64,000 bases of DNA from Minisyncoccia bacterium. Lineage in GTDB: Bacteria > Patescibacteriota > Minisyncoccia > Phycocordibacterales > GWA1-40-21. The notes beneath the pieces were generated by a model that was not told where the DNA came from, ran no database searches, and saw only the letters and a program-made list of their open reading frames with translations. Position numbers and translations under genes: made by a program. Positions 3,647-49,923 of this stretch are shown here, one piece after another; within the stretch, counting starts at the first letter, position 1, and each line of letters starts with the position of its first letter. The DNA is taken from NCBI GenBank assembly GCA_049287185.1, contig JBAQFI010000012.1:54659-118658 (forward strand). The letters are read 5' to 3'.

Positions 3647-4897
3647 ATGACCGCCTCACCCAAAACTCGCAAACCCAAAGTAATTTTTCACATGGATGGT
3701 GATGCTTTTTTTGTTGGAGTAGAAGTGGCTAAGAATCCTAAATTGCGAGGATTGCCAGTGGTGACGGGAGAAGAGCGAGGCATTGTTTCCGCTCTGTCTT
3801 ATGAAGCCAAAGCCCTTGGTATTACGCGCGGTATGCCAACCTACAAAGTTAAAAAAGAATATCCTAAGGTAATTATTTTGCCAGGTGATTATAAAGCTTA
3901 CGCTAAATATTCTAGTGCTATGTTTGATATTGTCCGTCGCTATGCCGATGATGTTGAAGAATATAGTATTGATGAATGTTTTGCAGATCTCACTGGTTTG
4001 GATAAGCCACTCAAGATGACGTACAGGCAAATTGCCGAGCGAATTAAAAGTGAAGTGAATAAGGAATTAGATTTATCAATTTCTATTGGTTTAGCACCAA
4101 GCAAAGTTCTGGCCAAGGTTGCCTCCAAATTTGTTAAGCCCAATGGTCTGACAATTATTGAGAAGGAAACCATCCCAAATTTTCTCGGGAAGACGCCAAT
4201 CGAGAAAATTTGGGGTATTGGTCCGCAGACTGCTTATTTGCTGAAAGATAAGAAAGTTTATTCGGCCTTGGATTTTGTGAATAAAGATTTAAATTGGATT
4301 AAACAAAATCTTTCCCAGCCTTATGAAGTACTGTGGCGAGAAATGAAAGGTGAGTATTTAATGGAAATAGATCCGAAACCTAAAACAGTATATTCTTCCG
4401 TGCAGAAAACTCGTTCATTCAATCCTTTTACCAATGATAAAGTTTTTCTCTTGTCACAACTGTCAAAACATATTGAGGAAGCTTGTACCAAAGCGCGACA
4501 TTACAATCTAATGCCAAGAAAGTTTTCCATTTTTCTCAAAACTAAAGATTTTAGATATTTTACGGCTTCGGCCAATCTGCAATCACCAACCAATGCTCCA
4601 GAGATTATTATTTCTCAAATGCACAAAATGTTTAAAGTGATTTATACCAAAGATGTGCTATACCGCACGACCGGTGTAACTTTATTGTCTCTAGTTTCTG
4701 ATTCAGTGACCCAAAGTGATTTGTTTGGAGATAATGCTCAGGCGAACAGGTTTGAGATTATCCACAAGCAAATTGACTCGCTAGAAGAGAAATTGGGCAA
4801 AAGGGTAGTGTATCTGGCTTCTACTCAAAAAGCCCTCAAACGCAAGGTTAAAGGCACTGAGGCTGATGATTTGGATAGAGATTTGTTGTTTTTGTGA
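3647..4897 (+). CDS. dinB: DNA polymerase IV (Y-family, DinB)
   Basis: VIFHMDGDAFFVGVEV (HVDMDAFFASVE-like), SIDECFADLTG, little-finger region; TGTATAAT extended -10 ends 6 nt before the ATG. Confidence 0.85.
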   Translation: MTASPKTRKPKVIFHMDGDAFFVGVEVAKNPKLRGLPVVTGEERGIVSALSYEAKALGITRGMPTYKVKKEYPKVIILPGDYKAYAKYSSAMFDIVRRYADDVEEYSIDECFADLTGLDKPLKMTYRQIAERIKSEVNKELDLSISIGLAPSKVLAKVASKFVKPNGLTIIEKETIPNFLGKTPIEKIWGIGPQTAYLLKDKKVYSALDFVNKDLNWIKQNLSQPYEVLWREMKGEYLMEIDPKPKTVYSSVQKTRSFNPFTNDKVFLLSQLSKHIEEACTKARHYNLMPRKFSIFLKTKDFRYFTASANLQSPTNAPEIIISQMHKMFKVIYTKDVLYRTTGVTLLSLVSDSVTQSDLFGDNAQANRFEIIHKQIDSLEEKLGKRVVYLASTQKALKRKVKGTEADDLDRDLLFL

Positions 4898-4921
4898 GCA
4901 AAGACTTGTCTTACTCACGAT

Positions 4922-5058
4922 TGTCATTCCCGCGCAGGCGGGAATCCAGCCTTTTTGATTTAAGACTATTTAAGATTCCTGGATTCCCGTCTTCACGGGA
5001 ATGACAGAGGGGAAAACTTAATCCTGGATTGCTTCGCTTCGCTCGCAATGACGGAAGG
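4922..5058. repeat. composite MITE-like repeat cluster with palindromic ends
   Basis: tgtcattcccgcgcaggcgggaatccag (4922-4949), spacer ttttgatttaagactatttaagatt, inverted cctggattcccgtcttcacgggaatgacagagg (4978-5010), plus a third degenerate half-site to 5058. Same composite recurs at 49832-49923. Confidence 0.8.
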
Positions 5059-5113
5059 TGAAGGTGGATGGTAGAGAGGGGTGCAAATAGCACATAATCT
5101 AAATTGTGATAAA

Positions 5114-5515
5114 ATGTTGAATATGAAAAATAATATTGAAACTAAAAAGAATTTCTCGATTTTTAAACGGGCCAAGAGTTTTGCCCATGCTGGTAGGGGA
5201 ATTAAAATATTTTTTAAAACTACCCACAATGCCTGGATTGAACTGGCCCTGTTCATTCTCGCCATTTTTCTCGCTTTTTATTTTAATATCACCGTTTATG
5301 AATTATTGATGCTAATTTTGGTCAGTGGTTTAGTTTTTGTGGCTGAGGCCTTTAACACAGCGATTGAAATCGATATGAACCTCACCTCACCAGAATTTCA
5401 TCCTTTTGCTCGCGACACCAAAGATGTCGCCGCTGGTGCCGTCCTCATTTCGGCTATCACTGCCACTGTTGTTGGTGTGGTGATTTTTATTCCTTATATT
5501 TTAATGTTAATATAA
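5114..5515 (+). CDS. dgkA: diacylglycerol kinase family protein (DgkA/undecaprenol kinase-like)
   Basis: AEAFNTAIEIDMNLTSPEFHPFARDTKDVAAGAVLI matches the DgkA core (NTAIE...KD.AAGAV). ORF-track start 5081 lies inside the repeat; ATG 5114 is more plausible. Confidence 0.65.
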   Translation: MLNMKNNIETKKNFSIFKRAKSFAHAGRGIKIFFKTTHNAWIELALFILAIFLAFYFNITVYELLMLILVSGLVFVAEAFNTAIEIDMNLTSPEFHPFARDTKDVAAGAVLISAITATVVGVVIFIPYILMLI

Positions 5516-5519
5516 AAAT

Positions 5520-5837
5520 ATGGAAAAATTTATTCAACCAGAATACATACCCGCAAAGGAAGAAGTTATTGAAATCATTAAACGCCATGCAGAAAATGCG
5601 ATAGTCACTCGCGAACTGTCTGACGAAAATGGAATCTATTTACTTGAACTAAAAGAAGAAGGAGAAAAACCCGGTAAATTTAATGAATACACATACGTTA
5701 GAAAAGGAGATTTTCCCAATAAACAACAATCACTTTCAACTACAATTTACGTTACATATTATGAGGATGATATTCCTTTCAGTGGCACTAATATTGCCGA
5801 GTATTCTACAGCTGAAGGTTGGAAGGAAATAAAATAA
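5520..5837 (+). CDS. hypothetical protein
   Basis: 105 aa ORF directly after dgkA; no motif recognised. Confidence 0.35.
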   Translation: MEKFIQPEYIPAKEEVIEIIKRHAENAIVTRELSDENGIYLLELKEEGEKPGKFNEYTYVRKGDFPNKQQSLSTTIYVTYYEDDIPFSGTNIAEYSTAEGWKEIK

Positions 5838-5844
5838 AATTTAA

Positions 5845-6408
5845 ATGAACTACACAAAACGAGTAAAGGAATTAAATCAAACATTTAAAGAAATACTGGA
5901 TAAATGTCCAGAACTTACTTTCATAGGCAATCCAATTCTTAGACAAAGGACAGATGATGTTATTCTTGAAGAAGGAATAAAAATTGCGTCTAAGTTAAAG
6001 AAGACACTAGAAACATACAGAGATATAACTGGATTTGGACGTGGACTAGCTGCACCTCAGATTGGTGAATCTAAATCAGTCTTTGTTACTTATGTCGGAG
6101 AAAAATTTAATACATATATTAACCCAAGAATTATTGGAAATTCTTCTAAGTTAAATTATTACCGTGAAAATTGCTTAAGCTGCGGATTTGTTTCGGTAGA
6201 TGTTAGACGACCAATTTCGATTATCATTGAATATACTAATGAAGAAGGAAAGTTACAGAAAGAAAATTTAGATAGCTTTTCTGCACGTTTAATTCAACAT
6301 GAATACGATCACTTAATTGGAATTGTTAACGTTGATAAAGCAGAACAAAATTCAATCGATTTCATGATTAACGATCCTCTTAAAGAAATTTTGAGAGATG
6401 ATAAGTAA
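5845..6408 (+). CDS. def: peptide deformylase
   Basis: Three PDF motifs: GRGLAAPQIG, ENCLSCGF (EGCLS), QHEYDHLIG (HExxH). Confidence 0.85.
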   Translation: MNYTKRVKELNQTFKEILDKCPELTFIGNPILRQRTDDVILEEGIKIASKLKKTLETYRDITGFGRGLAAPQIGESKSVFVTYVGEKFNTYINPRIIGNSSKLNYYRENCLSCGFVSVDVRRPISIIIEYTNEEGKLQKENLDSFSARLIQHEYDHLIGIVNVDKAEQNSIDFMINDPLKEILRDDK

Positions 6409-6502
6409 GCGTACAGGAGTATTTTGCTAGAACTATTCCATTTTATTAATTTCTATGTTAATCTACATTATCAGTTTTCAAATTAATAATTAATCAACCC
6501 AC

Positions 6503-6580
6503 AAAAAGAAGATTAACTGACTGGATCCCCGCCTACGCGGGCACGACAATCAGAATTATCGACTTTACCGGGTAAATAAT
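6503..6580 (+). repeat. 75-nt repeat, copy 1 of 2
   Basis: aaaaagaagattaaCtgactggatccccgcctAcgcgggCacgacaatcagaatTAtcgactttaccgggtaaataAt; near-identical copy at 9891-9967. Both end immediately before an ATG. Confidence 0.85.
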
Positions 6581-6724
6581 ATGGCAAAAAGAGCAGCTCA
6601 GGATATTAAAAATAAGACTTCACGTTCACATAAAACTACCAAACGTTTAGCAATCAAAAAAGCTCGTTTAGCAGCTTTGAAAGTAAAACGTGGGGGGAAG
6701 TACGGAAAGAATAAGCAAAAATAA
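6581..6724 (+). CDS. 47-aa highly basic small protein (ribosomal-protein-like composition, unassigned)
   Basis: Own translation MAKRAAQDIKNKTSRSHKTTKRLAIKKARLAALKVKRGGKYGKNKQK; starts at the end of the repeat, followed 10 nt later by a strong terminator; below the ORF-track length cut-off. Confidence 0.45.
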   Translation: MAKRAAQDIKNKTSRSHKTTKRLAIKKARLAALKVKRGGKYGKNKQK

Positions 6725-8269: not shown

Positions 8270-8352
8270 TGTCATTCCCGCGCAGGCGGGAATCCAGATT
8301 AATAATTTAAAAAGAAAGACTGGATCCCCGCATTCGCGAGGATGACAGAGGG
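8270..8352. repeat. composite MITE-like repeat
   Basis: tgtcattcccgcgcaggcgggaatccag, spacer attaataatttaaaaagaaag, inverted actggatccccgcattcgcgaggatgacagagg. Confidence 0.8.
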
Positions 8353-8362
8353 GAAAAATTAA

Positions 8363-8399
8363 AACACCTCGAGAGACTCACTCTCGAGGTGTGTTTGTG
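8363..8399. terminator. hairpin terminator between convergent genes
   Basis: acacctcgagag-actcact-ctctcgaggtgt followed by gtttgtg. Confidence 0.55.
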
Positions 8400-8896: not shown

Positions 8897-9250
8897 ATGA
8901 AAGCTAAAATCAAACCTAAATCTAGAAAGTATTATGTCTATGTGCTAGAGTGTGCAGACAAGACACTATACATTGGCTATACCACTGATTTGGGAAACCG
9001 AGTTTTAGCTCACAATAGTTTAAAAACTGGTGCTAAGTATACTAAAGCGAGAAGACCAGTGAAGTTGGTTTATTCAGAAAAGTTTAAGACCTTGAGTCAG
9101 GCACTGAAAAGAGAGTTCGCTCTAAAACAGATGACTAGGCTAGAAAAATTGGAGTTAATCAATAAAAATGCGCGAGAACAGTCCGCGTACAAAAATTCCT
9201 CGTCATTGCGAGCGAAAGCGAAGCAATCTAGACCTAAGTCTAAAATTTAA
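8897..9250 (+). CDS. GIY-YIG nuclease family protein (UPF0213-like)
   Basis: YYVYVLECADKTLYIGYTTDLGNRVLAHN gives the GIY-x10-YIG motif with conserved R and H; Lys-rich tail. Confidence 0.75.
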   Translation: MKAKIKPKSRKYYVYVLECADKTLYIGYTTDLGNRVLAHNSLKTGAKYTKARRPVKLVYSEKFKTLSQALKREFALKQMTRLEKLELINKNAREQSAYKNSSSLRAKAKQSRPKSKI

Positions 9251-9254
9251 TTAA

Positions 9255-9296
9255 ATCCTGGATTGCCACGGATGAAATACATCCTCGCAATGACGG
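9255..9296. repeat. solo palindromic repeat (variant family)
   Basis: cctggattgccacggatgaaatacatcctcgcaatgacgg is the reverse-oriented copy of the family seen at 37576-37614. Confidence 0.7.
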
Positions 9297-9317: not shown

Positions 9318-9884
9318 ATGAAAATTACTACAGCAACATTTATGAAGGGAATAATAGGTGACGATGCTATTTTAGCCGATGGAAAACCACAGGTAGCTTT
9401 TATTGGCCGTTCCAATGCTGGTAAGTCTAGTCTCATCAATTCTCTCACTGGTATCAAGGATTTAGCTCGGACTAGTAATACGCCCGGCCGAACTCAGGAA
9501 CTGAATGTTTTTTTGATTAACAAAACAAAATATTTTATTGACCTACCTGGTTATGGTTTTGCTAAAACTGGTGGGGAAATCTGGCAAAATATAAACAAGC
9601 TAGTTTATTGGTATCTATTTGAGTCACAATATAATCCGCTAGTTGTTTTAATTGTTGATGCTGAGATTGGTCCAACCAAGGACGACCTAGGAATGTTAAA
9701 ACTTTTAGAATTGCGAGGGAAGGAAATTGTGATTGTTTTAAACAAAGTTGATAAAATTAAAAATTCTCACTATCAAAATCAGATCAAAAAACTCAGAGAT
9801 ATCTTTAATGGTCACAAAGTTATTCCTTTCTCCTCCAAGTCTAAAGTCGGAACTGGAGAATTATCAGAAGAATTAATGAAATAG
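9318..9884 (+). CDS. engB: ribosome biogenesis GTP-binding protein YsxC/EngB
   Basis: GRSNAGKSSLIN (G1), TPGRTQ (G2), DLPGYGFA (G3), NKVDK (G4). Confidence 0.85.
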   Translation: MKITTATFMKGIIGDDAILADGKPQVAFIGRSNAGKSSLINSLTGIKDLARTSNTPGRTQELNVFLINKTKYFIDLPGYGFAKTGGEIWQNINKLVYWYLFESQYNPLVVLIVDAEIGPTKDDLGMLKLLELRGKEIVIVLNKVDKIKNSHYQNQIKKLRDIFNGHKVIPFSSKSKVGTGELSEELMK

Positions 9885-9890
9885 CCTGCT

Positions 9891-9967
9891 AAAAGAAGAT
9901 TAATTGACTGGATCCCCGCCTCCGCGGGGACGACAATCAGAATCGTCGACTTTACCGGGTAAATATT
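9891..9967 (+). repeat. 75-nt repeat, copy 2 of 2
   Basis: aaaagaagattaaTtgactggatccccgcctCcgcgggGacgacaatcagaatCGtcgactttaccgggtaaataTt, directly followed by ATG at 9968. Confidence 0.85.
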
Positions 9968-10237
9968 ATGAAAAGAATTTGGTTTAGAAGAAAATTGTAT
10001 GGTTGGGGTTGGTACCCGGTTACCTGGGAAGGCTGGTTAGTTATTCTTGTATATATCGCGCTCATTTTGACGCTCGCTTTAACAAGGGAAGAATATATAC
10101 CTGGAAATCCTGATTCAGGAAGCAATTTCCTGGTATTCGCCCTGCCAATTATTGTGCTGACTATTCTTCTAATAACCATCTCTTATAAGAAAGGTGAGAA
10201 ACCACGTTGGCAGTGGGGGAAGAGAATTGAAGATTAA
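9968..10237 (+). CDS. small membrane protein, hypothetical
   Basis: 89 aa; Trp-rich N-terminus and two TM helices; starts at the end of the repeat. Confidence 0.45.
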   Translation: MKRIWFRRKLYGWGWYPVTWEGWLVILVYIALILTLALTREEYIPGNPDSGSNFLVFALPIIVLTILLITISYKKGEKPRWQWGKRIED

Positions 10238-10252
10238 AAATGTTGTCTACCA

Positions 10253-10292
10253 AAAGTCATTCGCCAAAAATGGCGAATGACTTTTATATTTG
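10253..10292 (+). terminator. rho-independent terminator (hairpin related to the repeat stem)
   Basis: aaagtcattcgcc-aaaaat-ggcgaatgacttt followed by tatatttgtgtttt; a similar TCATTCGCC hairpin recurs at 47208. Confidence 0.7.
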
Positions 10293-14194: not shown

Positions 14195-14262
14195 AACTCA
14201 AATCTGACCTAATTTTCTTGAGCGAAGCGATTAGAAAATGGAAATACCCTTGTGGTACAAAA
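14195..14262. repeat. ~50-nt RS-like repeat (inverted copy)
   Basis: gacctaattttcttgagcgaagcgattagaaaatggaaatacccttgtggt is the reverse complement of the caccacaagggtatttccattttctaatcgcttcgctcaagaaaattaggtc family (copies at 18567, 37633, 42425, 49715). Confidence 0.75.
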
Positions 14263-14290
14263 TTCAAAGCTCAAAAGTTAGAGAAATAAG

Positions 14291-14330
14291 AAGCCGCGCA
14301 AGGGAATACCTTGCGCGGCTTTTTTGTTTG
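14291..14330 (+). terminator. rho-independent terminator
   Basis: aagccgcgcaagg-gaatacc-ttgcgcggctttttt. Confidence 0.8.
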
Positions 14331-14465
14331 ACACAGTTCACAATTAGATATAGTTTAAGAACATCATACCGTTATGGTCTGATAGTCATTTGTACTGGTA
14401 GTACAGGTGATTAAGTGCCAAGTGCTTGCACCTAAAAGCACAGTTCTTTAAAAAAGGAGGGCGTT

Positions 14466-14858: not shown

Positions 14859-14932
14859 CCCACAATTTTATAACCACCAACTTGGATAGTTGGTGGTTTT
14901 TCTATTGCAACATGTTAATATAGATACCAATT

Positions 14933-17849: not shown

Positions 17850-17895
17850 TACAAAATTATATCATAAAATTATATTTGTTTTGAAATCTATTATG

Positions 17896-17932
17896 ATTCC
17901 TGGATTCCCGCCTGCGCGGGAATGACAAGAGG
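17896..17932. repeat. solo palindromic repeat
   Basis: attcctggattcccgcctgcgcgggaatgacaagagg, near-identical to 18654-18690. Confidence 0.8.
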
Positions 17933-18500: not shown

Positions 18501-18523
18501 TATGTATAAACACAACAGGGGCG

Positions 18524-18550
18524 AGTATTACTTGCCCCTGTTTTTTCTTT
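18524..18550 (+). terminator. rho-independent terminator
   Basis: acaggggc-gagtattactt-gcccctgttttttc. Confidence 0.8.
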
Positions 18551-18551
18551 T

Positions 18552-18690
18552 TCTGTCATCCTCGCGCACCACAAGGGCATTTCCATTTTCTAATCGCTAT
18601 GCTCAAGAAGATTAGGTCATTGCGGGGATCTAGAGATTATATTTATATGCGAATAATCCTGGATTCCCGCCTGCGCGGGAATGACAAAAT
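18552..18690. repeat. repeat cluster: half-palindrome, RS-like 52-nt element, half-palindrome, solo palindrome
   Basis: tgtcatcctcgcg, caccacaagggcatttccattttctaatcgctatgctcaagaagattaggtc, attgcggggatc, then aatcctggattcccgcctgcgcgggaatgacaaaat. Confidence 0.8.
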
Positions 18691-20360: not shown

Positions 20361-20492
20361 TGTCATTCCCGACTCGATCGGGAATCCAGGAATCAATATG
20401 TAGTCTTAATACAAAAAGACTGGATCCCCGTCTTCACGGGGATGACAAAGAGTGGGGAATAAAAAATTGATATATACGGGAATGACAGAAAT
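20361..20492. repeat. composite MITE-like repeat plus extra half-site
   Basis: tgtcattcccgactcgatcgggaatccagg, spacer, gactggatccccgtcttcacggggatgacaaagag, then acgggaatgacagaaatg. Confidence 0.8.
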
Positions 20493-20518
20493 GAGTAAAA
20501 TACGCTATAATATTTACT

Positions 20519-32553: not shown

Positions 32554-34920
32554 ATGAAGTTGGAAATTGAAAAGTTAAAAAAGTACGTTCGAGCGACAAA
32601 CTATTTGTCTGTCTCACAGATCTATTTAAAAAATAATTACTTACTTAATGAGCCACTAAGTTTTGGAGACATTAAACCCAGACTTTTGGGTCACTGGGGA
32701 ACTTGTCCAGGCATTAACTTTGTTTATGCAAATCTCAATAATTTAGCCATAAAAAAACAAGCCAAGATTATTTTTCTTCTTGGACCTGGCCATGGTTTTC
32801 CGGCTCTTCAAGCCAACTTATTTTTAGAGGGTACTTTAGAAAAGTATTATGACAAAGCGGTTCGAGATCAATTTGGCATTGCCTATATTTCTAAAAACTT
32901 TTCTTGGCCATATGGTTTTCCAAGTCATAGCTCACCGGTCACTCCAGGAGTTATATTAGAAGGTGGAGAACTTGGTTATTCTTTGTCCACGGCTTTTGGG
33001 GCTGTACTTGATAATCCAGATCTCATTGCCGCGACTCTAGTCGGTGATGGTGAAGCTGAAACTGGCCCGACCGCCACAGCTTGGCACTTGAGTAAACTCT
33101 TAAACCCAGCTGGTGATGGAGCCGTCTTACCGATTTTACATTTAAATGGTTATAAAATTTCTGGACCAACTATTTTTGGTCGGATGGATGACAAGGACTT
33201 GTTAAAACTTTTCTATGGTTATGGTTATTTACCGATGATTGTTAGTGGCCATGATGACAAAGTTTATAAGCAAATGATTAAAGCTCTGGAAACATGTTAT
33301 GAAGAAATTCGAGCCATTCAAAAACAAGCTCGCGCTGGAAAGAAAAATCCGAACAAATTTCCACGTTATCCGATGATAATAATGCGGACACCAAAGGGTT
33401 GGACTGGTATTAAAACCCTCAAGCATGAAAAAATGGAGGGCAACAATTTGTCCCACCAAGTGGTTGGCAAGGAAGCCAAGACTGATAAAGAAGAAATGTA
33501 CGCTCTAGAAGCCTGGCTGAAGAGTTATAGGTTCCATGAATTATTTTCTCCACGTAAGGGCTGGCACAAAGATATTGTCTCCCTTATTCCAGATGAGGAA
33601 CTGTTAATGGGTAATAATCCTGTAACCTTTGGTTTAAAAAATAATCACCGGGATTTAATCTTGCCAGATATTTCAGAAATACAGATTGATGAAGTTGAGC
33701 CAGGTTCTCAAGAAAACCTAGTTAGCGCCATGCGCAAAATTGGCAGTTACTTTAATCAAATTTTTAAACTTAACTCTGCGAGTAAAAATTTCCGCATTAT
33801 GTCACCAGATGAAACTTACTCCAATAGATTGGATGAGGTTTTTCAAACAGTCGGACGAGTGTGGTCAGGAAAACTTGAAAAATGGGATAAAGATTTTTCT
33901 ACCGATGGCCGAGTGATGGAGATGTTATCAGAACACTCACTCCAAGGTTTACTCCAGGGTTATGTTTTAACTGGACGTTTTGGAGTGTTTGTTTCTTACG
34001 AATCTTTTGTTCAGATTGTTTCCAGTATGGCTGATCAATATGCCAAGTTTCTAAAAATTTCTCGGGATGTTTTTTGGCGAGGGGATTTACCATCATTTAA
34101 TTACATTTTAACCAGTACTGGTTGGCGCCAAGAACATAATGGTTTTTCTCACCAGAATCCAGGCTTTATGGATTCATTACTACAAAAACATAATAATTTT
34201 GTCAGTGTCTTTTTCCCTCCAGATGCCAACTCGGCCGTTGCTGTAATGGAAAGATGTTTAAAAGGTAGGAATGAAATGAATATTATTGTGGCCGAAAAAA
34301 CCCCTGAGGTTATGTGGCTCACACCAGAGGAGGCTCAGAAAGAGTTGCAAGAAGGTTTGATGATCTGGTCCTTCGCGAGTGATGAGAATCCGGACATTGT
34401 TTTATCTGCGGCTGGACAATATTTAACCATCGAGACATTGGCTGCCGTTGATTTGATTAAAAAGGAAGTGCCAAAGGCTAAGATTCGTTTTGTAAACATA
34501 TTAGAACTATCAGCCAACACTTTAGGTAGTTCAACGACTAAAATGTCTCAAGCTGAATTTGAGAGTTATTTTACCTCAGATAAACCGGTCATTATTAATT
34601 TTCATGGTTATCCAGAGACGCTAAAGCAAAGTCTTTTTGACTACCAAAACCAGCTAGGCAGGATTATCATTCATGGTTATAATGAACGTGGCTCGACTAC
34701 GACACCTTTTGATTTACATTTACGTAATAGCAATAGTCGCTATAATTTGGCTATAGAAGCATTTGATAAGTTGTCCGCGTCCGATGTTATAACAAAAGAT
34801 GAGGCAGAAAAACTAAAACATAAATATTATACCAAAATTTTTGAAGCCATCGCTTATGCTAAAGAAAATGGTGTTGATAAGCCAGAGATAGTGGAATGGA
34901 AGTGGAAAGGTAAAAAATAA
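32554..34920 (+). CDS. xfp: xylulose-5-phosphate/fructose-6-phosphate phosphoketolase
   Basis: GHWGTCPG, GPGHG, EGGELGYSL, 788 aa; extended -10 TGGTATAAT 6 nt before the ATG. Confidence 0.9.
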   Translation: MKLEIEKLKKYVRATNYLSVSQIYLKNNYLLNEPLSFGDIKPRLLGHWGTCPGINFVYANLNNLAIKKQAKIIFLLGPGHGFPALQANLFLEGTLEKYYDKAVRDQFGIAYISKNFSWPYGFPSHSSPVTPGVILEGGELGYSLSTAFGAVLDNPDLIAATLVGDGEAETGPTATAWHLSKLLNPAGDGAVLPILHLNGYKISGPTIFGRMDDKDLLKLFYGYGYLPMIVSGHDDKVYKQMIKALETCYEEIRAIQKQARAGKKNPNKFPRYPMIIMRTPKGWTGIKTLKHEKMEGNNLSHQVVGKEAKTDKEEMYALEAWLKSYRFHELFSPRKGWHKDIVSLIPDEELLMGNNPVTFGLKNNHRDLILPDISEIQIDEVEPGSQENLVSAMRKIGSYFNQIFKLNSASKNFRIMSPDETYSNRLDEVFQTVGRVWSGKLEKWDKDFSTDGRVMEMLSEHSLQGLLQGYVLTGRFGVFVSYESFVQIVSSMADQYAKFLKISRDVFWRGDLPSFNYILTSTGWRQEHNGFSHQNPGFMDSLLQKHNNFVSVFFPPDANSAVAVMERCLKGRNEMNIIVAEKTPEVMWLTPEEAQKELQEGLMIWSFASDENPDIVLSAAGQYLTIETLAAVDLIKKEVPKAKIRFVNILELSANTLGSSTTKMSQAEFESYFTSDKPVIINFHGYPETLKQSLFDYQNQLGRIIIHGYNERGSTTTPFDLHLRNSNSRYNLAIEAFDKLSASDVITKDEAEKLKHKYYTKIFEAIAYAKENGVDKPEIVEWKWKGKK

Positions 34921-34925
34921 TAAAA

Positions 34926-36104
34926 ATGAAAAAATATTTAATCGTCAATACTGGTAGTGCCTCAAAAAAATACGCTTTATATGAAGGGGACAAGAGACTT
35001 TTCTTTTCGCATTTTGAGACTGAGAACGGCGGGTATATTCTAACCAATTTTTACGGAGATTCGATTGAGAAAAAAAATATTACTCAAGATAGTTTTAATG
35101 ATTCTCTAAATTTTGTTTTAGGCGAACTCGTTAATCATAAAAGAATATCTGACTATAGTGACGTTATGGCTATCGGAGTCAGAGTGGTTGCTCCCGGAAA
35201 TTATTTTCTTGAACATAGATTGCTTGATGAAAAATATTTATCAGAACTTCAAATCGCCAAGGAAAAAGCGCCACTTCATTTGACCTCAATTTTAATTGAA
35301 ATTGAAAAGATTAAAAAGATGTTTCCAAGTACTGTGCTTTACGGTATCTCGGATAGTGCTTTTTATAAGGATTTACCAACTGTGGCAAAAACATACGGTA
35401 TTTCTACCGATATAGCGGAGAAGTATGGCATTTATCGTTTTGGTTATCATGGTCTCTCACTGCAATCACTAGTATCAAAGATACCAAAAGTTTTTGGACG
35501 TTTACCTTCAAAAACAGTGGTTTGCCACATTGGTGGTGGTGTTAGTTTGGTGGCGATTAAAGATGGTCAAGTGGTTGATACTTCAATGGGTTTTACACCT
35601 CTCGAGGGACTACTAATGGCTACACGAGTTGGAGATATTGATTCCGGAGCTATTCTTTATTTGCAAGAAAAAACTGGTATGAGTATTTTGGAAGTTCGTA
35701 AATATTTAAATTCGGAGTGCGGTCTGCTTGGAGTGAGTGAGAAGAGCGCAGATGTTCGTGATCTTATTGATCTGGAAAAGCAGGGAGACAAATTGGCTAC
35801 TTTAGCTTTAAATTTATATAGTTATAAAATTAAAAAATACATTGGTGCTTATACTGCAGCTATGAATGGTCTAAATGGGATTGTTTTCTCCGGCACGATT
35901 GGAGAAAGATCCTTTATTATGCGTGAGAGAATTCTCAGAGATTTGGAATGTTTTGGTGTTAAATTAAATCTAGATAAGAATGACCTCGCTATTGCGGAGG
36001 ACAAAGTGATTAGTAGTTGGCTTAGCAAAGTAAAGGTGATGGTTGTCCCAACAGATGAGATGAAACAACTAGCAGTAGAAACGTTAAATCTTGCAAAAGA
36101 TTAG
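34926..36104 (+). CDS. ackA: acetate kinase
   Basis: LIVNTGSASKKYALY, acetate/propionate kinase length; 5 nt after xfp stop. Confidence 0.85.
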   Translation: MKKYLIVNTGSASKKYALYEGDKRLFFSHFETENGGYILTNFYGDSIEKKNITQDSFNDSLNFVLGELVNHKRISDYSDVMAIGVRVVAPGNYFLEHRLLDEKYLSELQIAKEKAPLHLTSILIEIEKIKKMFPSTVLYGISDSAFYKDLPTVAKTYGISTDIAEKYGIYRFGYHGLSLQSLVSKIPKVFGRLPSKTVVCHIGGGVSLVAIKDGQVVDTSMGFTPLEGLLMATRVGDIDSGAILYLQEKTGMSILEVRKYLNSECGLLGVSEKSADVRDLIDLEKQGDKLATLALNLYSYKIKKYIGAYTAAMNGLNGIVFSGTIGERSFIMRERILRDLECFGVKLNLDKNDLAIAEDKVISSWLSKVKVMVVPTDEMKQLAVETLNLAKD

Positions 36105-37575: not shown

Positions 37576-37716
37576 CGTCATTGCGAGGATGTATTCATCC
37601 GTGGCAATCCAGGATTTTTTTAGGATTAGGTCTTACCACAAGGGTATTTCCAATTTCTAATCGCTTCGCTCAAGAAATTTAGGTCTGGATTGCTTCGCAA
37701 GGCTCGCAATGACGAA
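37576..37716. repeat. repeat cluster: variant palindrome, RS-like element, half-site
   Basis: tcgtcattgcgaggatgtattcatccgtggcaatccagg; accacaagggtatttccaatttctaatcgcttcgctcaagaaatttaggtc; ctggattgcttcgcaaggctcgcaatgacg. Confidence 0.8.
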
Positions 37717-42424: not shown

Positions 42425-42490
42425 CCTTTTGTACCACCAGGGCATTTCCATTTTTTACCACGGAGTACCGTGAAGAAAATTAGGTCAACT
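42425..42490. repeat. RS-like repeat variant
   Basis: accaccagggcatttccattttttaccacggagtaccgtgaagaaaattaggtc. Confidence 0.6.
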
Positions 42491-44441: not shown

Positions 44442-47201
44442 ATGAAAAAAATCTTTTCGTATGTTTGCTTATTGGCGATAGCGTTTTTGTTTGTGGGAGT
44501 TTCTATTAATACTGCTCAAGCCGTAGCTCCTGGTGATGTTTTAATTAATGAGTTTAGACTTGATGGAACTCAATGGATTGAGCTTTTTAATACTACTGAT
44601 AGTGACATTAATTTAGCTTCTTCAACCTGGGAGCTCGTATCAACTGTATCTGGACCAGGATCAGCTACTTCAACATTGTCAGCTGGTTTAATCCCTGCCA
44701 ACGGATTATTAACTGTTGCTGCTAGTGGTCTTCCAACTACGGCACCGACTATGCTAGCCCTAAATGAAGGTGCGGTGAATATTTATACCATGTCCTATGG
44801 TACTCCAGCCTTCGGTGCCGAACCTCATTTTACTGGAAATTTACCTTCTGGTCAGTCTGCCGTTTTAACTGGTGGAACAACTTGGAGTGCCACTTCTACC
44901 GCTAATATAACTCGCGGCTGGTATAATGAATCACCCGCACCAACTATCACTAGTATTGTTTCTGATATAAATACTTCTAATGTGGCTACCAACATGAGTA
45001 CCTCCAGTGATAACACTGCGGTTACTGGTTTGTATTTTGAAAAAAGAACCACACTTGGTAACCCAGCTACAGCACTGGGTAGATTAACTTTTGCAGGACC
45101 CTTAAATCTTACAAACGCTTCAACCACTGCGCTTCTTCAAGACCTTGGTACAAAGATGGAGGCTGCTGCCGGTAGTTTGTCATTTGATGCTCGTACCGCC
45201 ACTGATCTAAGAAACGCTGGTGCTTCAATATCCATGTACAATGTAGAAAACATTGGATACGATATTGATGATTTAGACATTTCTGACCTAACCGTTGTGG
45301 ATGATTTAGGTGTAGAAATCGCAACTTCTTCAATTGATTACCCAAGTTTTTCTAGTATATCAACTAGTACTGATAACAGTGGAACATTTACATTTACCAC
45401 CAGTCACTTTACTGGGTTTGAATTTGATCCAATTGTAACTGAAGTAACTCCAGTTACAACACCAACTGCTTCAACTAGTCCATATTATACTTTTAGTTCA
45501 AATGTGGTCGGTACAGTTATCTATGGTGGAGATTGTGCTACTACCTCTGCTTCAACTACAGTCGGAAATAATATTGTTCAATTTGGACCATTGGCAACAT
45601 TTACCACTTATTCAAATTGTACCGTTAAAGTGATTGATGGAGCTGGAGCATCTACTACTTTAGCTGTTACACCATTTACAATTTCTACTCTTTCAGCAAA
45701 TCCAGCTGCCGTTGATTTGGGCACTGCTGGCAATTATGTTGTTTTAGCAAAATCAGGAATTACTACTACTGCCGGTAGCTCAATTACAGGAGATATAGGA
45801 GCTAGTCCGATTAGTGCGACTGCTATAACAGGATTTGATTTATCAATGCATTCTTCAAATACATATTCAACCTCAGCTCTCATAACTGGAAAAGTTTACG
45901 CTTCCAATTACACTTCTCCGACTCCGGATATTTTAACAACTGCCATAGGTGATATGGAAACTGCCTATACCGATGGAGCCGGAAGATCAGCTGATGTCAC
46001 AGAATTGGGGGCTGGAAACATCGGTGGAATGACTCTCACTCGTGGTGTTTATAACTGGACTACTGGAGTAACAATCCCTACCGACCTCACTCTTTCTGGT
46101 AGTGCTACAGATGTCTGGATTTTTCAAATCGCTGGAGATCTTGATATCAGTAGTGCCACCGATATTATTTTGAGTGGAGGAGCATTAGCAAAAAATATTT
46201 ATTGGGTAGTTGCTGGTCAGACATTCATCAATACCACAGCTGTATTCAATGGTAATATTATTTGTACTAATAGTTTAGGCCTTCATCTTTACACTGGTGC
46301 TACTTTAAACGGTAGAGCTTTATCAACATTCAATGTTACATTACAATCTAACATCGTTACTTTTCCGGCTGAAAGTTCTGCCAAAGATATCACCGCCTTT
46401 ACTGTTCCTGGTCAAGATGGTTCAACTACAATTAGTATAGCTAGTAGTACTGTGAATTTAACTGTTCCATTTGGAACAAATGTAACTGCTCTTGTACCAA
46501 CAATTACGATTACCGGTGCATCAGTTAGCCCGGCTTCTGGTATTGCCCACAACTTTACAGCTTCTAGTACCTATACCGTCACAGCTGATGATGCTTCAAC
46601 CCACGATTATACTGTTAAAGTTACAATTACTTCAGGTTTGACTGATGCTACAATCACTTCCGCAACTTACACAATAAACAATACTGATTCAACAATCACT
46701 AGTATTGCCAGAAACACATCGATGGCGTCCTTTTTAGCAGCTATAGCTACTTCAACTGGACAGAATTGGAATACCTCTGGTCTTTCAAGTACAATAAACA
46801 CAGGAGATACCTTAGTAGTTACTGCTCAAGACGGAGTAACAACAAAGACATATACCTTAACTGTTCGTACTTACAGTGGTAGTTCATCACATACTAGTAC
46901 TGAAACCCCTGCAACAACCACTACTACAACAACTACACCTTCCACCACAACTACAACTACCACTACATCTACTACCCACAGATTTAATACTGATCTAACT
47001 TTGGGTTCAACTGGAAACGATGTAGTAGAATTACAAAAAGCTTTGGTTGCAAAAGGACTACTTGTTATGCCAGCCGGAGTGTCAATGGGTTATTTTGGAA
47101 ATTTGACTAGATTAGCTCTAATTAATTATCAATTAGAAAATGGTATTACTCCAGCTGTCGGTTACTTTGGTCCATTAACTAGAACTAGTCTAAATAAATA
47201 A
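44442..47201 (+). CDS. secreted surface protein: signal peptide, lamin-tail domain, Thr/Ser-rich regions, ice-binding-like DUF3494 domain, poly-Thr linker, C-terminal peptidoglycan-binding domain
   Basis: SP MKKIFSYVCLLAIAFLFVGVSINTAQA; LTD PGDVLINEFRLDGTQWIELFNTTDSDINL; DUF3494 AVDLGTAGNYVVLAKSGITTTAGSSITGDIGASPISATAITGF...VWIFQIAGDL...NIYWVVAGQT; PGBD GNDVVELQKALVAKGLL...GYFGNLTRLAL. Confidence 0.7.
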   Translation: MKKIFSYVCLLAIAFLFVGVSINTAQAVAPGDVLINEFRLDGTQWIELFNTTDSDINLASSTWELVSTVSGPGSATSTLSAGLIPANGLLTVAASGLPTTAPTMLALNEGAVNIYTMSYGTPAFGAEPHFTGNLPSGQSAVLTGGTTWSATSTANITRGWYNESPAPTITSIVSDINTSNVATNMSTSSDNTAVTGLYFEKRTTLGNPATALGRLTFAGPLNLTNASTTALLQDLGTKMEAAAGSLSFDARTATDLRNAGASISMYNVENIGYDIDDLDISDLTVVDDLGVEIATSSIDYPSFSSISTSTDNSGTFTFTTSHFTGFEFDPIVTEVTPVTTPTASTSPYYTFSSNVVGTVIYGGDCATTSASTTVGNNIVQFGPLATFTTYSNCTVKVIDGAGASTTLAVTPFTISTLSANPAAVDLGTAGNYVVLAKSGITTTAGSSITGDIGASPISATAITGFDLSMHSSNTYSTSALITGKVYASNYTSPTPDILTTAIGDMETAYTDGAGRSADVTELGAGNIGGMTLTRGVYNWTTGVTIPTDLTLSGSATDVWIFQIAGDLDISSATDIILSGGALAKNIYWVVAGQTFINTTAVFNGNIICTNSLGLHLYTGATLNGRALSTFNVTLQSNIVTFPAESSAKDITAFTVPGQDGSTTISIASSTVNLTVPFGTNVTALVPTITITGASVSPASGIAHNFTASSTYTVTADDASTHDYTVKVTITSGLTDATITSATYTINNTDSTITSIARNTSMASFLAAIATSTGQNWNTSGLSSTINTGDTLVVTAQDGVTTKTYTLTVRTYSGSSSHTSTETPATTTTTTTTPSTTTTTTTTSTTHRFNTDLTLGSTGNDVVELQKALVAKGLLVMPAGVSMGYFGNLTRLALINYQLENGITPAVGYFGPLTRTSLNK

Positions 47202-47207
47202 TTAAAA

Positions 47208-47275
47208 AGTCATTCGCCAAAAAAGGCGAATGAAGTTAAAACAAAAACCATCTCAGTAAGGTGGTTTTTGTTTGC
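47208..47275 (+). terminator. tandem hairpins, second with U-tract
   Basis: gtcattcgcc-aaaaaa-ggcgaatga then aaaaacca-tctcagtaagg-tggtttttgtttg; a further hairpin aagaagagg-ggattgg-cctcttctt (47297-47321) serves the minus-strand gene. Confidence 0.6.
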
Positions 47276-49637: not shown

Positions 49638-49705
49638 AATTCAAAGCAAATCAAATAATATGCATATAGACTTTGAATTACGAAATATCAATTTTATCTC
49701 TACTA

Positions 49706-49923
49706 TCATTCTCGCGCACCACCAGGATATTTCCATTTTCTCCACTCGCTCTCCCTTCTGTCATTCTCTCTTATTTTCCGTCATTGCGAGAAAGTATTCT
49801 GACGAAGCAATCCAGGATTAATTTTTTCCCTCTGTCATTCCCGCATAGGCGGGAATCCAGTTTTTTGGTTTTAAGACTGATTAAGATTCCTGGGTTCCCG
49901 TTGTCACGGGAATGACAGAAAGA
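49706..49923. repeat. large repeat cluster: RS-like fragment, variant palindrome, composite MITE-like element
   Basis: caccaccaggatatttccattttc; ccgtcattgcgagaaagtattctgacgaagcaatccagg; ctgtcattcccgcataggcgggaatccag, spacer ttttttggttttaagactgattaagatt, inverted cctgggttcccgttgtcacgggaatgacagaaag. Confidence 0.8.

Follow-up and report, generated by a model that had tools for sequence, protein, structure and literature searches.

Hairpin repeats of the dRS3/NTS type in a Patescibacteria genome: mostly tag-outward pairs and putative targets of a single-stranded DNA nuclease

The 64-kb stretch of a Minisyncoccia (Patescibacteria) genome analysed here, referred to as the window, contains short palindromic repeats between its genes, which raises the question of what family these repeats belong to and what acts on them. 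In an earlier note, four composites (4922-5010, 8270-8352, 20361-20453, and 49832-49923) were read as Correia- or NIME-like MITEs. All four exist with the structure described. We identified a total of 19 full copies of the underlying hairpin module plus fragments in the window, organized in 10 clusters with a density of about one module per 3.4 kb. Our main reading, to which we assign a probability of roughly 0.6, is that these are CGTC-tagged REPs of the dRS3/NTS type, arranged mostly as tag-outward pairs and putatively targeted by a single-stranded DNA (ssDNA) nuclease.

The module is oriented and has the layout (C/T)GTC-stem-loop-stem-CCAG. It is composed of an unpaired (C/T)GTC tag, an 8-bp stem beginning with AT, a loop of 4 nt in class 1 and of greater length in class 3, and an unpaired CCAG tail. 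Exact ATTCCC-N8-GGGAAT sequences occur six times in the window (0.00 expected), and GTCAT-N12-34-ATCCAG gives 15 matches (0.59 expected), 14 of which are true modules. The similarity to the Neisseria dRS3 repeat to which the earlier note had pointed turned out to be closer than claimed: compared with the 28-nt Neisseria NTS consensus (CGTCATTCCCGCGMAVGCGGGAATCYRG, taken from PMC11893778), four copies match at 27 of 28 positions, including the module TGTCATTCCCGCGCAGGCGGGAATCCAG, and two further copies match at 25. The same note's remark that DUS sequences are lacking holds for the window. The published SRM pattern, HGTCWYN(0-2)YYVSBRHN(0-5)WNVSBRGN(0-2)RNCYNB, fits eight window copies (0.08 expected). 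The 11 remaining modules are variants which this pattern does not cover, and two stem classes, ATCCCCG and ATTGCGAG with long loops, lie beyond it. Three stem classes, including long-loop class-3 units, coexist in this one genome, and heterodimers occur as well. Alignment, pair counts and the fold of 4919-4953 revealed the features that define CGTC-1 REPs: a CGTC or TGTC tag, an 8-bp stem starting with AT, a 4-nt loop, and a CCA tail. The 27/28 match to the Neisseria dRS3/NTS sequence indicates that the repeats belong to an already described pan-bacterial superfamily, known from several phyla (PMC3733652, PMC11893778). Judged from sequence, the modules are CGTC-tagged REPs of family CGTC-1 (Neisseria dRS3; Di Nocera, De Gregorio and Rocco, 2013, PMC3733652), which are the same as the NTS/SRM sequences. 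The repeat is neither new nor a Correia-like transposon, but a member of this superfamily.

A covariance model (R1) was built on 17 hand-aligned window modules (alignment A2). R1 recovered its 17 training modules and two on which it was not trained, 6517-6551 on the minus strand and a split copy at 18551-18637 on the plus strand (Table 1). A looser scan for GTC followed by any hairpin, with G:T pairs allowed, was noisy (110 matches); a stricter scan and then R1 were used. All 17 aligned modules have the same G5, T6, and C7 in the tag and the same C and AG in the tail, and the reverse strand of the modules scores just about 16 bits with R1, providing a signal for orientation. The compensatory stem changes reported earlier were confirmed: one stem pair switches between U:A and C:G (three copies) and another between C:G and G:C (six copies). 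Stem cells are paired in 89.7% of cases vs. 76% in shuffles, and the covariation score of 0.328 (0.149 in shuffles) was reached by none of 500 shuffles.

Table 1. Hairpin modules, accompanying repeats, and the GIY-YIG gene in the window.
Feature	Position	Strand	Evidence or remark
Class-1 module TGTCATTCCCGCGCAGGCGGGAATCCAG	4923..4949	+	Left half of HH pair; NTS 27/28; SRM fit; R1 46.5 bits
Class-1 module	4979..5005	-	Right half of HH pair 4922-5008; R1 50 bits
Class-3 short-loop module CGTCATTGCGAGCGAAGCGAAGCAATCCAG	5024..5052	-	R1 39.3 bits; z 0.04 alone
Class-2 variant module, GTCGT tag	6521..6547	-	R1 27.8 bits, untrained; inside 104-nt direct repeat 6487-6590
Class-1 module	8271..8297	+	Left half of HH pair; pattern, R1, NTS comparison
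Class-2 module GTCATCCTCGCGAATGCGGGGATCCAG	8320..8346	-	Right half of HH pair; SRM pattern, R1
117-aa GIY-YIG gene, putative UPF0213/YhbQ type	8897..9250	+	Pfam GIY-YIG 5.5e-15
Class-3 short-loop module, CTAG tail	9202..9231	+	Left half of HH heterodimer 9202-9294; R1 30.9 bits
Class-3 long-loop module	9258..9294	-	Right half of heterodimer 9202-9294; pattern, R1
Class-2 variant module, GTCGT tag	9908..9934	-	Second copy of 104-nt repeat, 9874-9977; R1 38.8 bits, in training alignment
Symmetrical tagged hairpin GTCATTCGCC-AAAAAT-GGCGAATGAC	10256..10281		Perfectly symmetrical; second copy 47209-47231
RS-like repeat, further copy	14200-14256	-	
Class-1 module, pair remnant with spacer kept	17900..17926	-	17875-17927 79% identical to 4954-5006
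Split class-2 module: GTCATCCTCGCGC, ~52-nt RS-like repeat, GCGGGGATCTAG	18555..18633	+	R1 24.9 bits over 18551-18637
RS-like ~50-nt repeat ACCACMAGGRYATTTCCA...TTAGGTC	18568..18618	+	Alignment of copies
Class-1 module	18659..18685	-	R1 52.7 bits; AATGAC end gives ATG at 18681
Class-1 module, longer loop	20362..20389	+	Left half of HH pair; 7 nt past Pif1-helicase stop
Class-2 module GTCATCCCCGTGAAGACGGGGATCCAG	20420..20446	-	Right half of pair; SRM pattern, R1
Module 5'-half remnant CTGTCATTCCCG	20477..20488	-	ATGACA = -35-like hexamer
Class-3 long-loop module	37577..37612	+	Left half of heterodimer; RS-like repeat in spacer
RS-like repeat, further copy	37635-37685	+	
Class-3 short-loop module	37685..37713	-	Right half of heterodimer; 31 nt ahead of tgt start 37744
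RS-like repeat, further copy	42433-42483	+	
Two module 5'-half remnants, 49703-49717 and 49758-49770	49703..49770	+	Either side of RS-like copy
RS-like repeat, further copy	49718-49741	+	
Class-3 long-loop module	49780..49815	+	R1 39.2 bits
Class-1 module	49834..49860	+	Left half of HH pair 49833-49919
Class-1 module, degenerate CCCAG tail	49890..49916	-	Right half of pair; R1 43.6 bits

Most modules lie in inverted pairs with their tags pointing outward (HH dimers), an orientation shared by all six dimers in the window, and these pairs fold into long hairpins. Folded as ssDNA, pairs have z scores of -5 to -7.5 (4922-5008, -23.6 kcal/mol, z -7.5; 49833-49919, z -6.7; 20362-20446, z -5.0); class-3 short-loop modules alone are weak hairpins (z 0.04). 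Two pairs, 4922-5008 and 49833-49919, share 87% identity across 87 nt that include the spacer. Not all of the ends earlier regarded as solo are solitary: those at 9255 and 37576 are halves of the pairs 9202-9294 and 37577-37713, the one at 17900 is the remnant of a pair which has kept its spacer, and the one at 18659 lies beside the split copy.

Non-coding sequence makes up 18% of the window, and all 10 clusters are located in it. Eight lie between genes of the same direction, for the most part 7-25 nt past the stop codon of the upstream gene, and one between convergent genes, the location that had been ascribed to them before. Six or seven of the 10 begin 7-35 nt past a stop codon, and about 10% of the window genes carry a module at their 3' end. 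Reported overlaps with 5' ends of ORFs are mostly the result of mechanical ORF extension: the true tgt start, taken from the deposited 407-aa product, is at 37744, and the DAGK ORF starts 28 nt beyond the last module. The overlap at 18681 is real, as this ATG lies inside a module. A promoter-like site was observed at 20482-20511 (11/12 matches), the hexamer of which is the ATGACA of a module remnant.

The placement behind stop codons could mean that the modules are inert as DNA and persist as 3' UTR RNA elements. They would then have one of the roles suggested for REPs in general, namely that of hairpins which stabilize or process mRNA or that of auxiliary terminators. Apart from the stable folds, the HH pair 8271-8346 fits this explanation: it is located between the stop codon of an ABC gene and the native terminator at 8364-8392 and is therefore probably transcribed, and its site has been kept in three diverged genomes. 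However, the native terminators are separate hairpins with T-runs, whereas the modules have no T-runs, and a function in RNA leaves the unpaired tag and tail, the strict orientation, and the near-identity across phyla unexplained. Moreover, the characterized Ssn partner of these sequences does not bind RNA (PMC11893778). Three tRNAs were the sole matches in the window at Rfam gathering thresholds, and an Rfam search by E-value gave chance-level matches, none of them on a module. We consider a role as RNA elements improbable.

To follow the modules in other genomes, further loci (L-numbers) were fetched, among which L202, L204, and L205 are close relatives. All three lack the 93-nt pair 9202-9294 at the orthologous site; in L204, where the absence is precise, the empty site has the flanks CAAAAATTC...GGAGAAAGTG and the GIY ORF has another tail. 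The same short-loop/long-loop type of heterodimer recurs in L202 (841-929, 79% identity), in the window at 37577-37713, and in L208. The L208 ortholog of 37577-37713 has a different interior, and L211 has no pair. Close relatives differ in whether they carry the dimer, which moves as a unit in that it occupies different loci. Target-site duplications were found neither at the six window pairs nor in the comparison of the filled and empty site. In one case, AATGGCG at the empty site of L204 resembles AATGACG at the end of the filled site; this resemblance may be fortuitous, reflect a preferred target, or be the scar of a deletion.

Classical Correia-like MITEs, moved by a DDE transposase which recognizes terminal inverted repeats, would also give 85-100-nt composites with inverted ends and presence/absence polymorphism. 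This explanation, which was the one favored earlier, is hardly credible given that target-site duplications are lacking, that the window encodes no transposase, and that single, tandem, and split modules are common. Furthermore, the presumed terminal inverted repeat is an autonomous oriented hairpin found across phyla. The start of the Correia inverted repeat is absent. Correia elements (CREE) carry a TA target duplication as well as IHF and RNase III sites, none of which were found here. The similarity is confined to being short intergenic repeats bounded by inverted repeats; there is no sequence similarity, and the terminal inverted repeats of Correia elements are long.

The dimers show more resemblance to REPINs and BIMEs (Bertels and Rainey, 2011, PMC3116915), in which an inverted REP doublet likewise replicates, forms a long hairpin, and inserts without target-site duplication, and in which singlets are decayed doublets. 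An analogy with REPINs has also been noted for NTS/SRM sequences (PMC11893778). If a RAYT (an HUH tyrosine transposase resembling those of IS200/IS605) were present as a single copy elsewhere in the genome and copied the pairs, this would account for tag-outward pairs that move as a unit. REPINs, however, are tagged with GTAG and lie on either side of a RAYT gene, whereas the tag here is CGTC and no RAYT, Y1 transposase, or any other transposase was found in the 64-kb window; short of a dedicated scan, no Y1 transposase was noticed next to modules of the other loci either. CGTC-tagged REPs have never been found flanking RAYT genes, and RAYT-linked REPs are those with the GTAG tag (PMC3733652), making RAYT-driven copying very unlikely. 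In the survey of CGTC-1 REPs (PMC3733652), HH dimers also predominate, lie near the 3' ends of upstream ORFs, and are not accompanied by a transposase. The five phyla in that survey do not include CPR, and the present genome differs by its three stem classes, long loops, and heterodimers.

Modules are also interrupted by other short repeats. An RS-like repeat of about 50 nt has five matches in the window (0.03 expected) and is present in L133 as well; two of the five copies lie between or inside modules. A promoter function for this repeat was set aside because two of the five copies face gene 3' ends. Loop insertions were found in the window at 18551-18637 and in the left module in L208, and in three cases in total unrelated sequence lies inside module loops, indicating that insertion or rearrangement has repeatedly taken place exactly at hairpin loops. 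Having precedent in Neisseria (PMC1797815), such insertions might suggest that the mosaics are scars of integration into hairpin loops. However, the inserts are non-coding repeats of 50-95 nt rather than mobile genomes, no recombinase or prophage was found in the window, and the multiplication of the hairpins is left unexplained, so that this account has little chance of being correct. The arrangement is more reminiscent of the NIMEs (Parkhill, 2000; Bentley, 2007, PMC1797815), in line with the earlier comparison: dRS3-type hairpins flank, or are split by, RS repeats (50-150 nt in NIMEs), and array content varies at syntenic positions of related genomes. NIMEs were considered Neisseria-specific (PMC1797815). 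Their arrays contain dozens of modules compared with one to three here, and no link to surface-antigen genes was seen in the window. Some clusters have grown into small NIME- or BIME-like mosaics, next to dimers that resemble REPINs.

The site after the ABC gene (8271-8346) is rearranged in L202, which retains GTCATTCCCG followed by unrelated DNA, and collapsed to one perfect hairpin in L133. This site at least is old and vertically inherited, and a large part of the family may consist of relics that are no longer active. In L133 the collapsed pair (4624-4655) is comparable to the perfectly symmetrical tagged hairpin of the window. Of this hairpin, L205 has one copy and L202 has a copy at 7072 that keeps both tags as well as two with degenerate tags.

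In the NTS/SRM-Ssn system, small GIY-YIG nucleases of the Ssn family bind NTS/SRM sequences as ssDNA and cleave just upstream (Chenal, 2025, PMC11893778). The modules described here share with that system the oriented hairpin with conserved 5' tag and 3' C, the almost exclusively intergenic and clustered location and, in other fetched loci, their presence on either side of Ssn-type genes. The host differs: it is a Patescibacteria MAG with a GC content of about 36%, and Patescibacteria do not appear in the main text of PMC11893778. No canonical Ssn-type ORF and no NTS-ssnA-NTS unit were found in the 64 kb; the GIY-YIG gene present here appears to be of the UPF0213 type. To examine the wider distribution, other sequence collections were searched. 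Over 120 stretches of viral contigs contain the exact pattern, a second variant occurs in over 120 stretches of metagenomes with GC contents of 35-70%, and the window-built model found 230 modules in unrelated viral-contig loci. The wide distribution suggested earlier is thereby supported, whereas the alternative of convergence is not, given the described CGTC-1/SRM superfamily. In five of the first 120 viral-contig loci and eight of 120 metagenome loci, canonical Ssn-type GIY-YIG ORFs have modules at a distance of no more than about 100 nt, counted on both sides where the contig was long enough and with viral module positions available for the first 100 loci. This adjacency agrees with PMC11893778. 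Two low-GC contigs with modules, L268 and L301, encode Ssn-type genes; by their names, the relatives of the L301 protein come from Nitrospinae and Legionellaceae rather than from CPR. A BLAST comparison of the ORFs of 16 low-GC contigs with CPR proteins gave no usable taxonomic signal.

The only GIY-YIG gene in the window encodes a protein of 117 aa, the last 16 codons of which derive from an inserted module. A GIY-YIG Pfam domain (residues 11-82) is its only domain, as in the single-domain Ssn family with its size of about 80-120 aa. We take the conserved domain cd10456 to be UPF0213, with cd10448 as the Ssn family. The 117-aa protein scored 65 and 63 bits against the UPF0213 structures PDB 1ywl and 1zg2, respectively, and 23-45 bits against 13 module-flanked Ssn-type ORFs, which themselves scored 65-106 bits against the Ssn-type queries L028 and L068. 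For the ORFs from viral contigs, its scores were 32-45 bits with phmmer E-values of 1e-7 to 1e-11. The C-terminal LIE..NP.W.DL motif of the Ssn-type ORFs is absent from it. These scores point away from membership of cd10448 and suggest a UPF0213/YhbQ-type protein. Among the homologous loci, 79 of 80 have no modules or flanking repeats, and no SRM-pattern match adjoins the gene in any of the 80 homologue-bearing genomes; a general association of this gene with the modules, as expected of a canonical Ssn, was therefore rejected. The exception is L133, in which a module of a different class was inserted independently at the 3' end of the GIY-YIG gene, resulting in the tail VIPAKAGIQ. The adjacent gene may have a lineage-specific role.

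The 117-aa protein could itself be the cognate ssDNA nuclease, representing a second small GIY-YIG branch recruited to SRM sequences in CPR. Its Ssn-like size, single domain, and homology to Ssn-type ORFs are consistent with this, as are the residues conserved in the CPR family, which include Y15, Y25, R35, H39, N40, and E73. Moreover, in the window the gene overlaps an HH pair at its 3' end, and the only other homologue locus with a module, L133, acquired its insertion independently at the same end. Several observations argue against this. The close relatives L202, L204, and L205, with proteins 81-93% identical, carry the gene without a module, like nearly all homologue loci, and conservation of the family extends widely through CPR, Firmicutes, and Campylobacterota, a spread resembling that of a housekeeping gene. 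The modules lie on the 3' side only, unlike the tag-outward NTS-gene-NTS layout of L068 and L028, and a 3' module is in any case not rare among the window genes. We regard this assignment as unlikely, though worth pursuing. The broader proposal that in episymbiotic CPR, which are thought to rely on uptake of foreign DNA, a UPF0213/YhbQ-type protein rather than a canonical Ssn services the hairpins is doubtful. If true, the widespread and uncharacterized UPF0213/YhbQ proteins would form another lineage of site-specific ssDNA nucleases beside Ssn, and hairpin-guided ssDNA restriction would take place in Patescibacteria.

We return to the main reading, in which the modules probably act as targets of an ssDNA nuclease, by analogy with Neisseria and Wolbachia. 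Whenever replication, repair, or DNA uptake exposes one strand, the modules on it would be active in single-stranded form. Their hairpin would be recognized strand-specifically by a small site-specific ssDNA nuclease whose cut falls a few nucleotides 5' of the tag. Incoming or exposed ssDNA would thereby be fragmented and left with recombinogenic ends, which would account for the spread of dimers as well as for the rearrangements in loops and flanks. The cognate enzyme is most likely encoded beyond the window, or was active in the past.

In outline the repeat is already explained by the CGTC-REP/dRS3/NTS-SRM superfamily, for which a partner nuclease was described in 2025. The abundance in a Patescibacteria genome of a 27-nt sequence nearly identical to the Neisseria NTS extends this superfamily to reduced-genome, symbiont-like CPR, consistent with the published remark that symbionts are enriched among SRM-rich genomes. 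The relatives provide natural examples of insertion of a dimer as a unit without duplication, of loops as insertion hot spots, and of conversion of a dimer into a single perfect hairpin, which inform how hairpin repeats spread and decay. For genome analysis, it is relevant that the modules break short-read assemblies and cause spurious ORFs and altered C-termini (SLRAKAKQS, VIPAKAGIQ) in the annotation of CPR MAGs. Finally, with no canonical partner nearby, the finding that a UPF0213-type gene gained a 3' module twice independently offers a lead to the function of a large uncharacterized family.

We identified in the window an oriented hairpin module in which the GTC tag at the start and the C-AG tail at the end are invariant among 17 hand-aligned copies, with two stem halves enclosing a loop in between. 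The core ATTCCC-N8-GGGAAT was found six times in a pattern search of the window (0 expected), and the oriented pattern GTCAT-N12-34-ATCCAG occurs 15 times (0.59 expected), 14 of these being true modules. The stems fall into three classes, tagged TGTC in class 1 and CGTC in class 3, and differ from one another by genuine double substitutions, with U:A and C:G alternating at one stem pair and C:G and G:C at another. Stem pairing is 89.7% and the covariation score lies above all 500 shuffles and all slid controls, bearing out the compensatory stem changes described in the earlier note. A covariance model built from the aligned copies (R1) recovered all 17 of them and two others, at 6517-6551 and 18551-18637, the latter consisting of two module halves set ~52 nt apart. 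In total, 19 full modules and several half-remnants are present in 10 clusters, and the feature is real and statistically overwhelming.

The element is described exactly in two publications. CGTC-tagged REPs were defined by Di Nocera et al. (2013; PMC3733652); the CGTC-1 type has a CGTC/TGTC tag, an 8-bp stem beginning with AT, a 4-nt loop and a CCA tail, mostly forms 'HH' dimers with the tags outside, corresponds to Neisseria dRS3, and is found in five phyla without a dedicated transposase. About half of the dRS3 copies represent a longer oriented motif, NTS (CGTCATTCCCGCGMAVGCGGGAATCYRG), which was generalised to 'Ssn-related motifs' (SRM) (Chenal et al., 2025; PMC11893778). Four window copies match NTS at 27/28 positions, the sole difference being the first base, and eight fit the SRM pattern (0.08 expected); the window modules belong to the CGTC-1/NTS-SRM superfamily. 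Together with a recurrent ~50-nt RS-like repeat they give NIME-like mosaics (definitions from PMC1797815). The suspected dRS3/NIME link holds. The exact 27-mer pattern was present in >120 viral-contig stretches and the class-3 variant in >120 metagenome stretches of 35-70% GC, and the window-derived R1 recovered 230 modules in the unrelated viral-contig loci; copies are not confined to the window, and the family is therefore pan-bacterial. Of the proposal of a widely distributed or convergent family, the wide distribution stands, and the family is an already known one rather than new.

Six clusters contain an inverted pair with tags outward and CCAG tails inward. Each pair is predicted to fold as ssDNA into either two small hairpins or one long hairpin (-19 to -29 kcal/mol, z -5 to -7.5). 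Pairs 4922-5008 and 49833-49919 share 87% identity, which takes in the spacer, and the 'solo' module at 17900 still has the spacer of this pair type.

Features in the window and in comparison loci (coordinates without a locus name refer to the window)
Feature	Location	Detail
Stem class 1		ATTCCCG...CGGGAAT
Stem class 2		ATCCCCG...CGGGGAT
Stem class 3		ATTGCGAG...GCAAT; short or long loops
Inverted pairs	4923/5005, 8271/8346, 9202/9294, 20362/20446, 37577/37713, 49834/49916	
Same heterodimer type as 9202-9294	L202 841-929	unrelated locus, 79% identical
Same heterodimer type as 9202-9294	37577-37713; orthologous site in L208	
Site after ABC gene	window	full pair
Site after ABC gene	L202	GTCATTCCCG, then ~95 nt unrelated DNA
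Site after ABC gene	L133	one perfect hairpin, TGTCATTCCCGC-TTTC-GCGGGAATGACA, the outer halves of a pair joined
RS-like repeat	14200-14256(-), 18568-18618(+), 37635-37685(+), 42433-42483(+), 49718-49741(+); L133 about 6345-6385	TTGTACCACMAGGGYATTTCCATTTTCTAATCGC...GAAGAAAATTAGGTC
Symmetrical hairpins	10256-10281, 47209-47231; L202 6661-6688, 6739-6762, 7071-7098; L205 about 595-620; L133 4624-4655	e.g. GTCATTCGCC-AAAAAT-GGCGAATGAC
104-nt direct repeat	6487-6590, 9874-9977	85% identical; reaches ATG at 6583 and 9968
Native terminators	8364-8392, 18514-18542, 14872-14898	hairpins with T-runs
Module-derived ORFs or C-termini	9199-9250, 49673-49915, 4993-5265; L133 6225-6300	SSLRAKAKQSRPKSKI, VIPAKAGIQKKFRGMTSS
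Large IBP_CFB-domain proteins with adjoining sortase gene	44442-47201, 52051-54354, 54416-55051	internal DNA repeats 52729-53003 and 53269-53543, 71% identical

The window was compared with a syntenic locus of 81-87% DNA identity (L202, JGI 3300048804), with loci sharing the GIY-YIG/GTPase junction (L204, L205, L206), with loci covering the FKBP-tgt junction (L208, L211) and with a more distant Paceibacterota MAG (L133). L204, L202 and L205 lack the 93-nt pair 9202-9294, a presence/absence polymorphism of the kind the earlier note had called for. At the empty site of L204 the flanks are contiguous (CAAAAATTC-AATGGC-GGAGAAAGTG) and the GIY-YIG ORF ends in ...KNSMAEKVIKK; in the window it reads into the module (...KNSSSLRAKAKQSRPKSKI). 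This pair is a heterodimer of a short-loop and a long-loop class-3 module which recurs at three other places, and L211 has just a 65-nt spacer at the FKBP-tgt site. The dimer is the unit of spread and target duplication is absent, no duplicated target being found in the filled/empty comparison of 9202-9294. The units had been described as Correia-like MITEs, but classical MITEs are contradicted by the lack of a TSD and of the Correia inverted-repeat start; none of the three labels Correia-like element, TSD-forming MITE and new family fits. RAYT-driven REPINs are contradicted by the tag, which is CGTC and not GTAG, and by the lack of a RAYT in the window, and a role of the modules as recombinase targets by the lack of a recombinase there. 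An old and rearranged site lies after the ABC gene: the window, L202 and L133 are all occupied there but differ inside. Two modules carry loop insertions (18551-18637 and the left module of L208), and the hairpin is the site of rearrangement. Because of the presence/absence differences, the moving dimer, the rearranged ABC site and the loop insertions, we conclude that the modules are discrete and polymorphic, and that their hairpins readily break or take up insertions.

The RS-like repeat, with a variable internal hairpin, is present in five copies (0.03 expected), which stand alone or lie within a pair spacer or the loop of a module. Since three of the five are upstream of genes, it could carry promoter-like signals, although the other two face gene 3' ends. 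Perfectly symmetrical hairpins, with stems that take in the tag on both sides, occupy terminator-like positions just past genes and look like pairs collapsed to their outer halves or progenitors of pairs. Three of them in L202 surround an HTH gene absent from the window, and of these just the one at 7072 has both GTC tags intact. The 104-nt direct repeat holds a GTCGT-tag module variant and extends into the ATG start codon of a small ORF downstream, and the whole upstream region of these ORFs, including a possible ribosome-binding context, appears to be duplicated.

All clusters lie within the non-coding 18% of the window, and six to seven of the ten start 7-35 nt past a stop codon. Only one of ten lies between convergent genes, the setting proposed previously. 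Native terminators are other hairpins, and pair 8271-8346 is located between a stop codon and a T-run terminator. A promoter-like site (20482-20511, 11/12 match) directly precedes the P-type ATPase gene, which starts at 20519. Its -35-like hexamer is supplied by the ATGACA end of a module remnant, and a perfect TATAAT follows 18 nt downstream, suggesting that module ends may donate promoter elements. Gene-content differences adjoin module clusters (window 4870-6435, L202 6602-7539): the window has two additional genes, a 105-aa unknown ORF and peptide deformylase (5520-6408), in place of which L202 carries an HTH_5 gene that separates dinB from a diacylglycerol kinase gene. Modules also yield spurious ORFs and changed C-termini, and short-read contigs end within them (L001), which in practice endangers both the annotation and the assembly of CPR MAGs.

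In the work on SRMs, ssnA, a 94-aa GIY-YIG gene, is flanked by SRMs; SsnA binds the motif solely as ssDNA and in one orientation, cuts a few nucleotides upstream, and in N. meningitidis this cutting lowers transformation by NTS-bearing DNA (PMC11893778). By analogy, the window modules would function in single-stranded form: a small GIY-YIG ssDNA nuclease would recognise their hairpins strand-specifically and cut 5' of the tag. Incoming or exposed ssDNA would thereby be restricted or trimmed, and the ends so made would drive copying and rearrangement; as a side role, RNA-level effects in 3'-UTRs are plausible. Two pairs are adjoined by a GIY-YIG gene (8897-9250) for a single-domain protein of 117 aa, and there is no second GIY-YIG gene in the window. 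Among proteins of known structure, its product is closest to the UPF0213 members 1ywl (65 bits) and 1zg2 (63 bits). GIY-YIG ORFs tightly flanked by modules, found in five viral and eight metagenome loci, are a distinct type (NGTLYxGVT...GFTxxY...REKQIK...LIE..NP.W.DL) which scores 65-106 bits against two Ssn-type queries (L028, L068) and only 23-45 bits against the window protein. Among 80 genomes with homologues of the latter (CPR, Firmicutes, Campylobacterota), an R1 module was found only in L133, and 0/80 had an SRM-pattern match or any repeat beside the homologue gene; for Ssn homologues, an SRM is present in 71% of the regions (PMC11893778). The UPF0213 likeness, the low Ssn-type scores and the missing SRM association all oppose identifying the gene as ssnA. 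The corresponding gene of L133 has independently acquired a class-1 module at its 3' end, a coincidence with a chance of, roughly estimated, a few per cent, and we therefore keep the gene as a candidate partner nuclease, albeit an unlikely one. Outside the window, the genome may carry an Ssn-type gene.

The window (~36% GC) carries common housekeeping genes, for UvrB, TypA, Tgt, DinB, Pif1 helicase, a P-type ATPase, ABC-F proteins, peptide deformylase, ClpP, Ddl, phosphoketolase and acetate kinase, and no transposase, integrase or prophage genes were found within the 64 kb. The next relatives of its Tgt are labelled Paceibacterota, and the class Minisyncoccia belongs to Minisyncoccota (Patescibacteria/CPR). 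The repeats are not an artefact of one assembly, because independent short-read assemblies (Logan SRR28062869) hold the same genes and one contig breaks exactly inside a module. Phosphoketolase (788 aa) is directly followed by acetate kinase (32554-36104), a compact pentose/hexose-phosphate-to-acetate module in a reduced genome. Two large secreted-type proteins with ice-binding-like (IBP_CFB) domains, adjoined by a sortase gene, are probably cell-surface proteins of an episymbiont. An intergenic, ORF-free stretch at 14282-14441(-), with a strong hairpin of terminator type at its end (14321-14291, 13 pairs and a T-run), may be an unannotated small RNA; Rfam gave sub-threshold matches only (trpB motif 31 bits, STnc310 27 bits).

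CPR goes unmentioned in the main text of PMC11893778, and no paper dealing with REPs in Patescibacteria came up in a full-text literature search. New are CPR as a host group, the question of which nuclease serves the hairpins in this genome, and a clean natural series of insertion, collapse and loop insertion.
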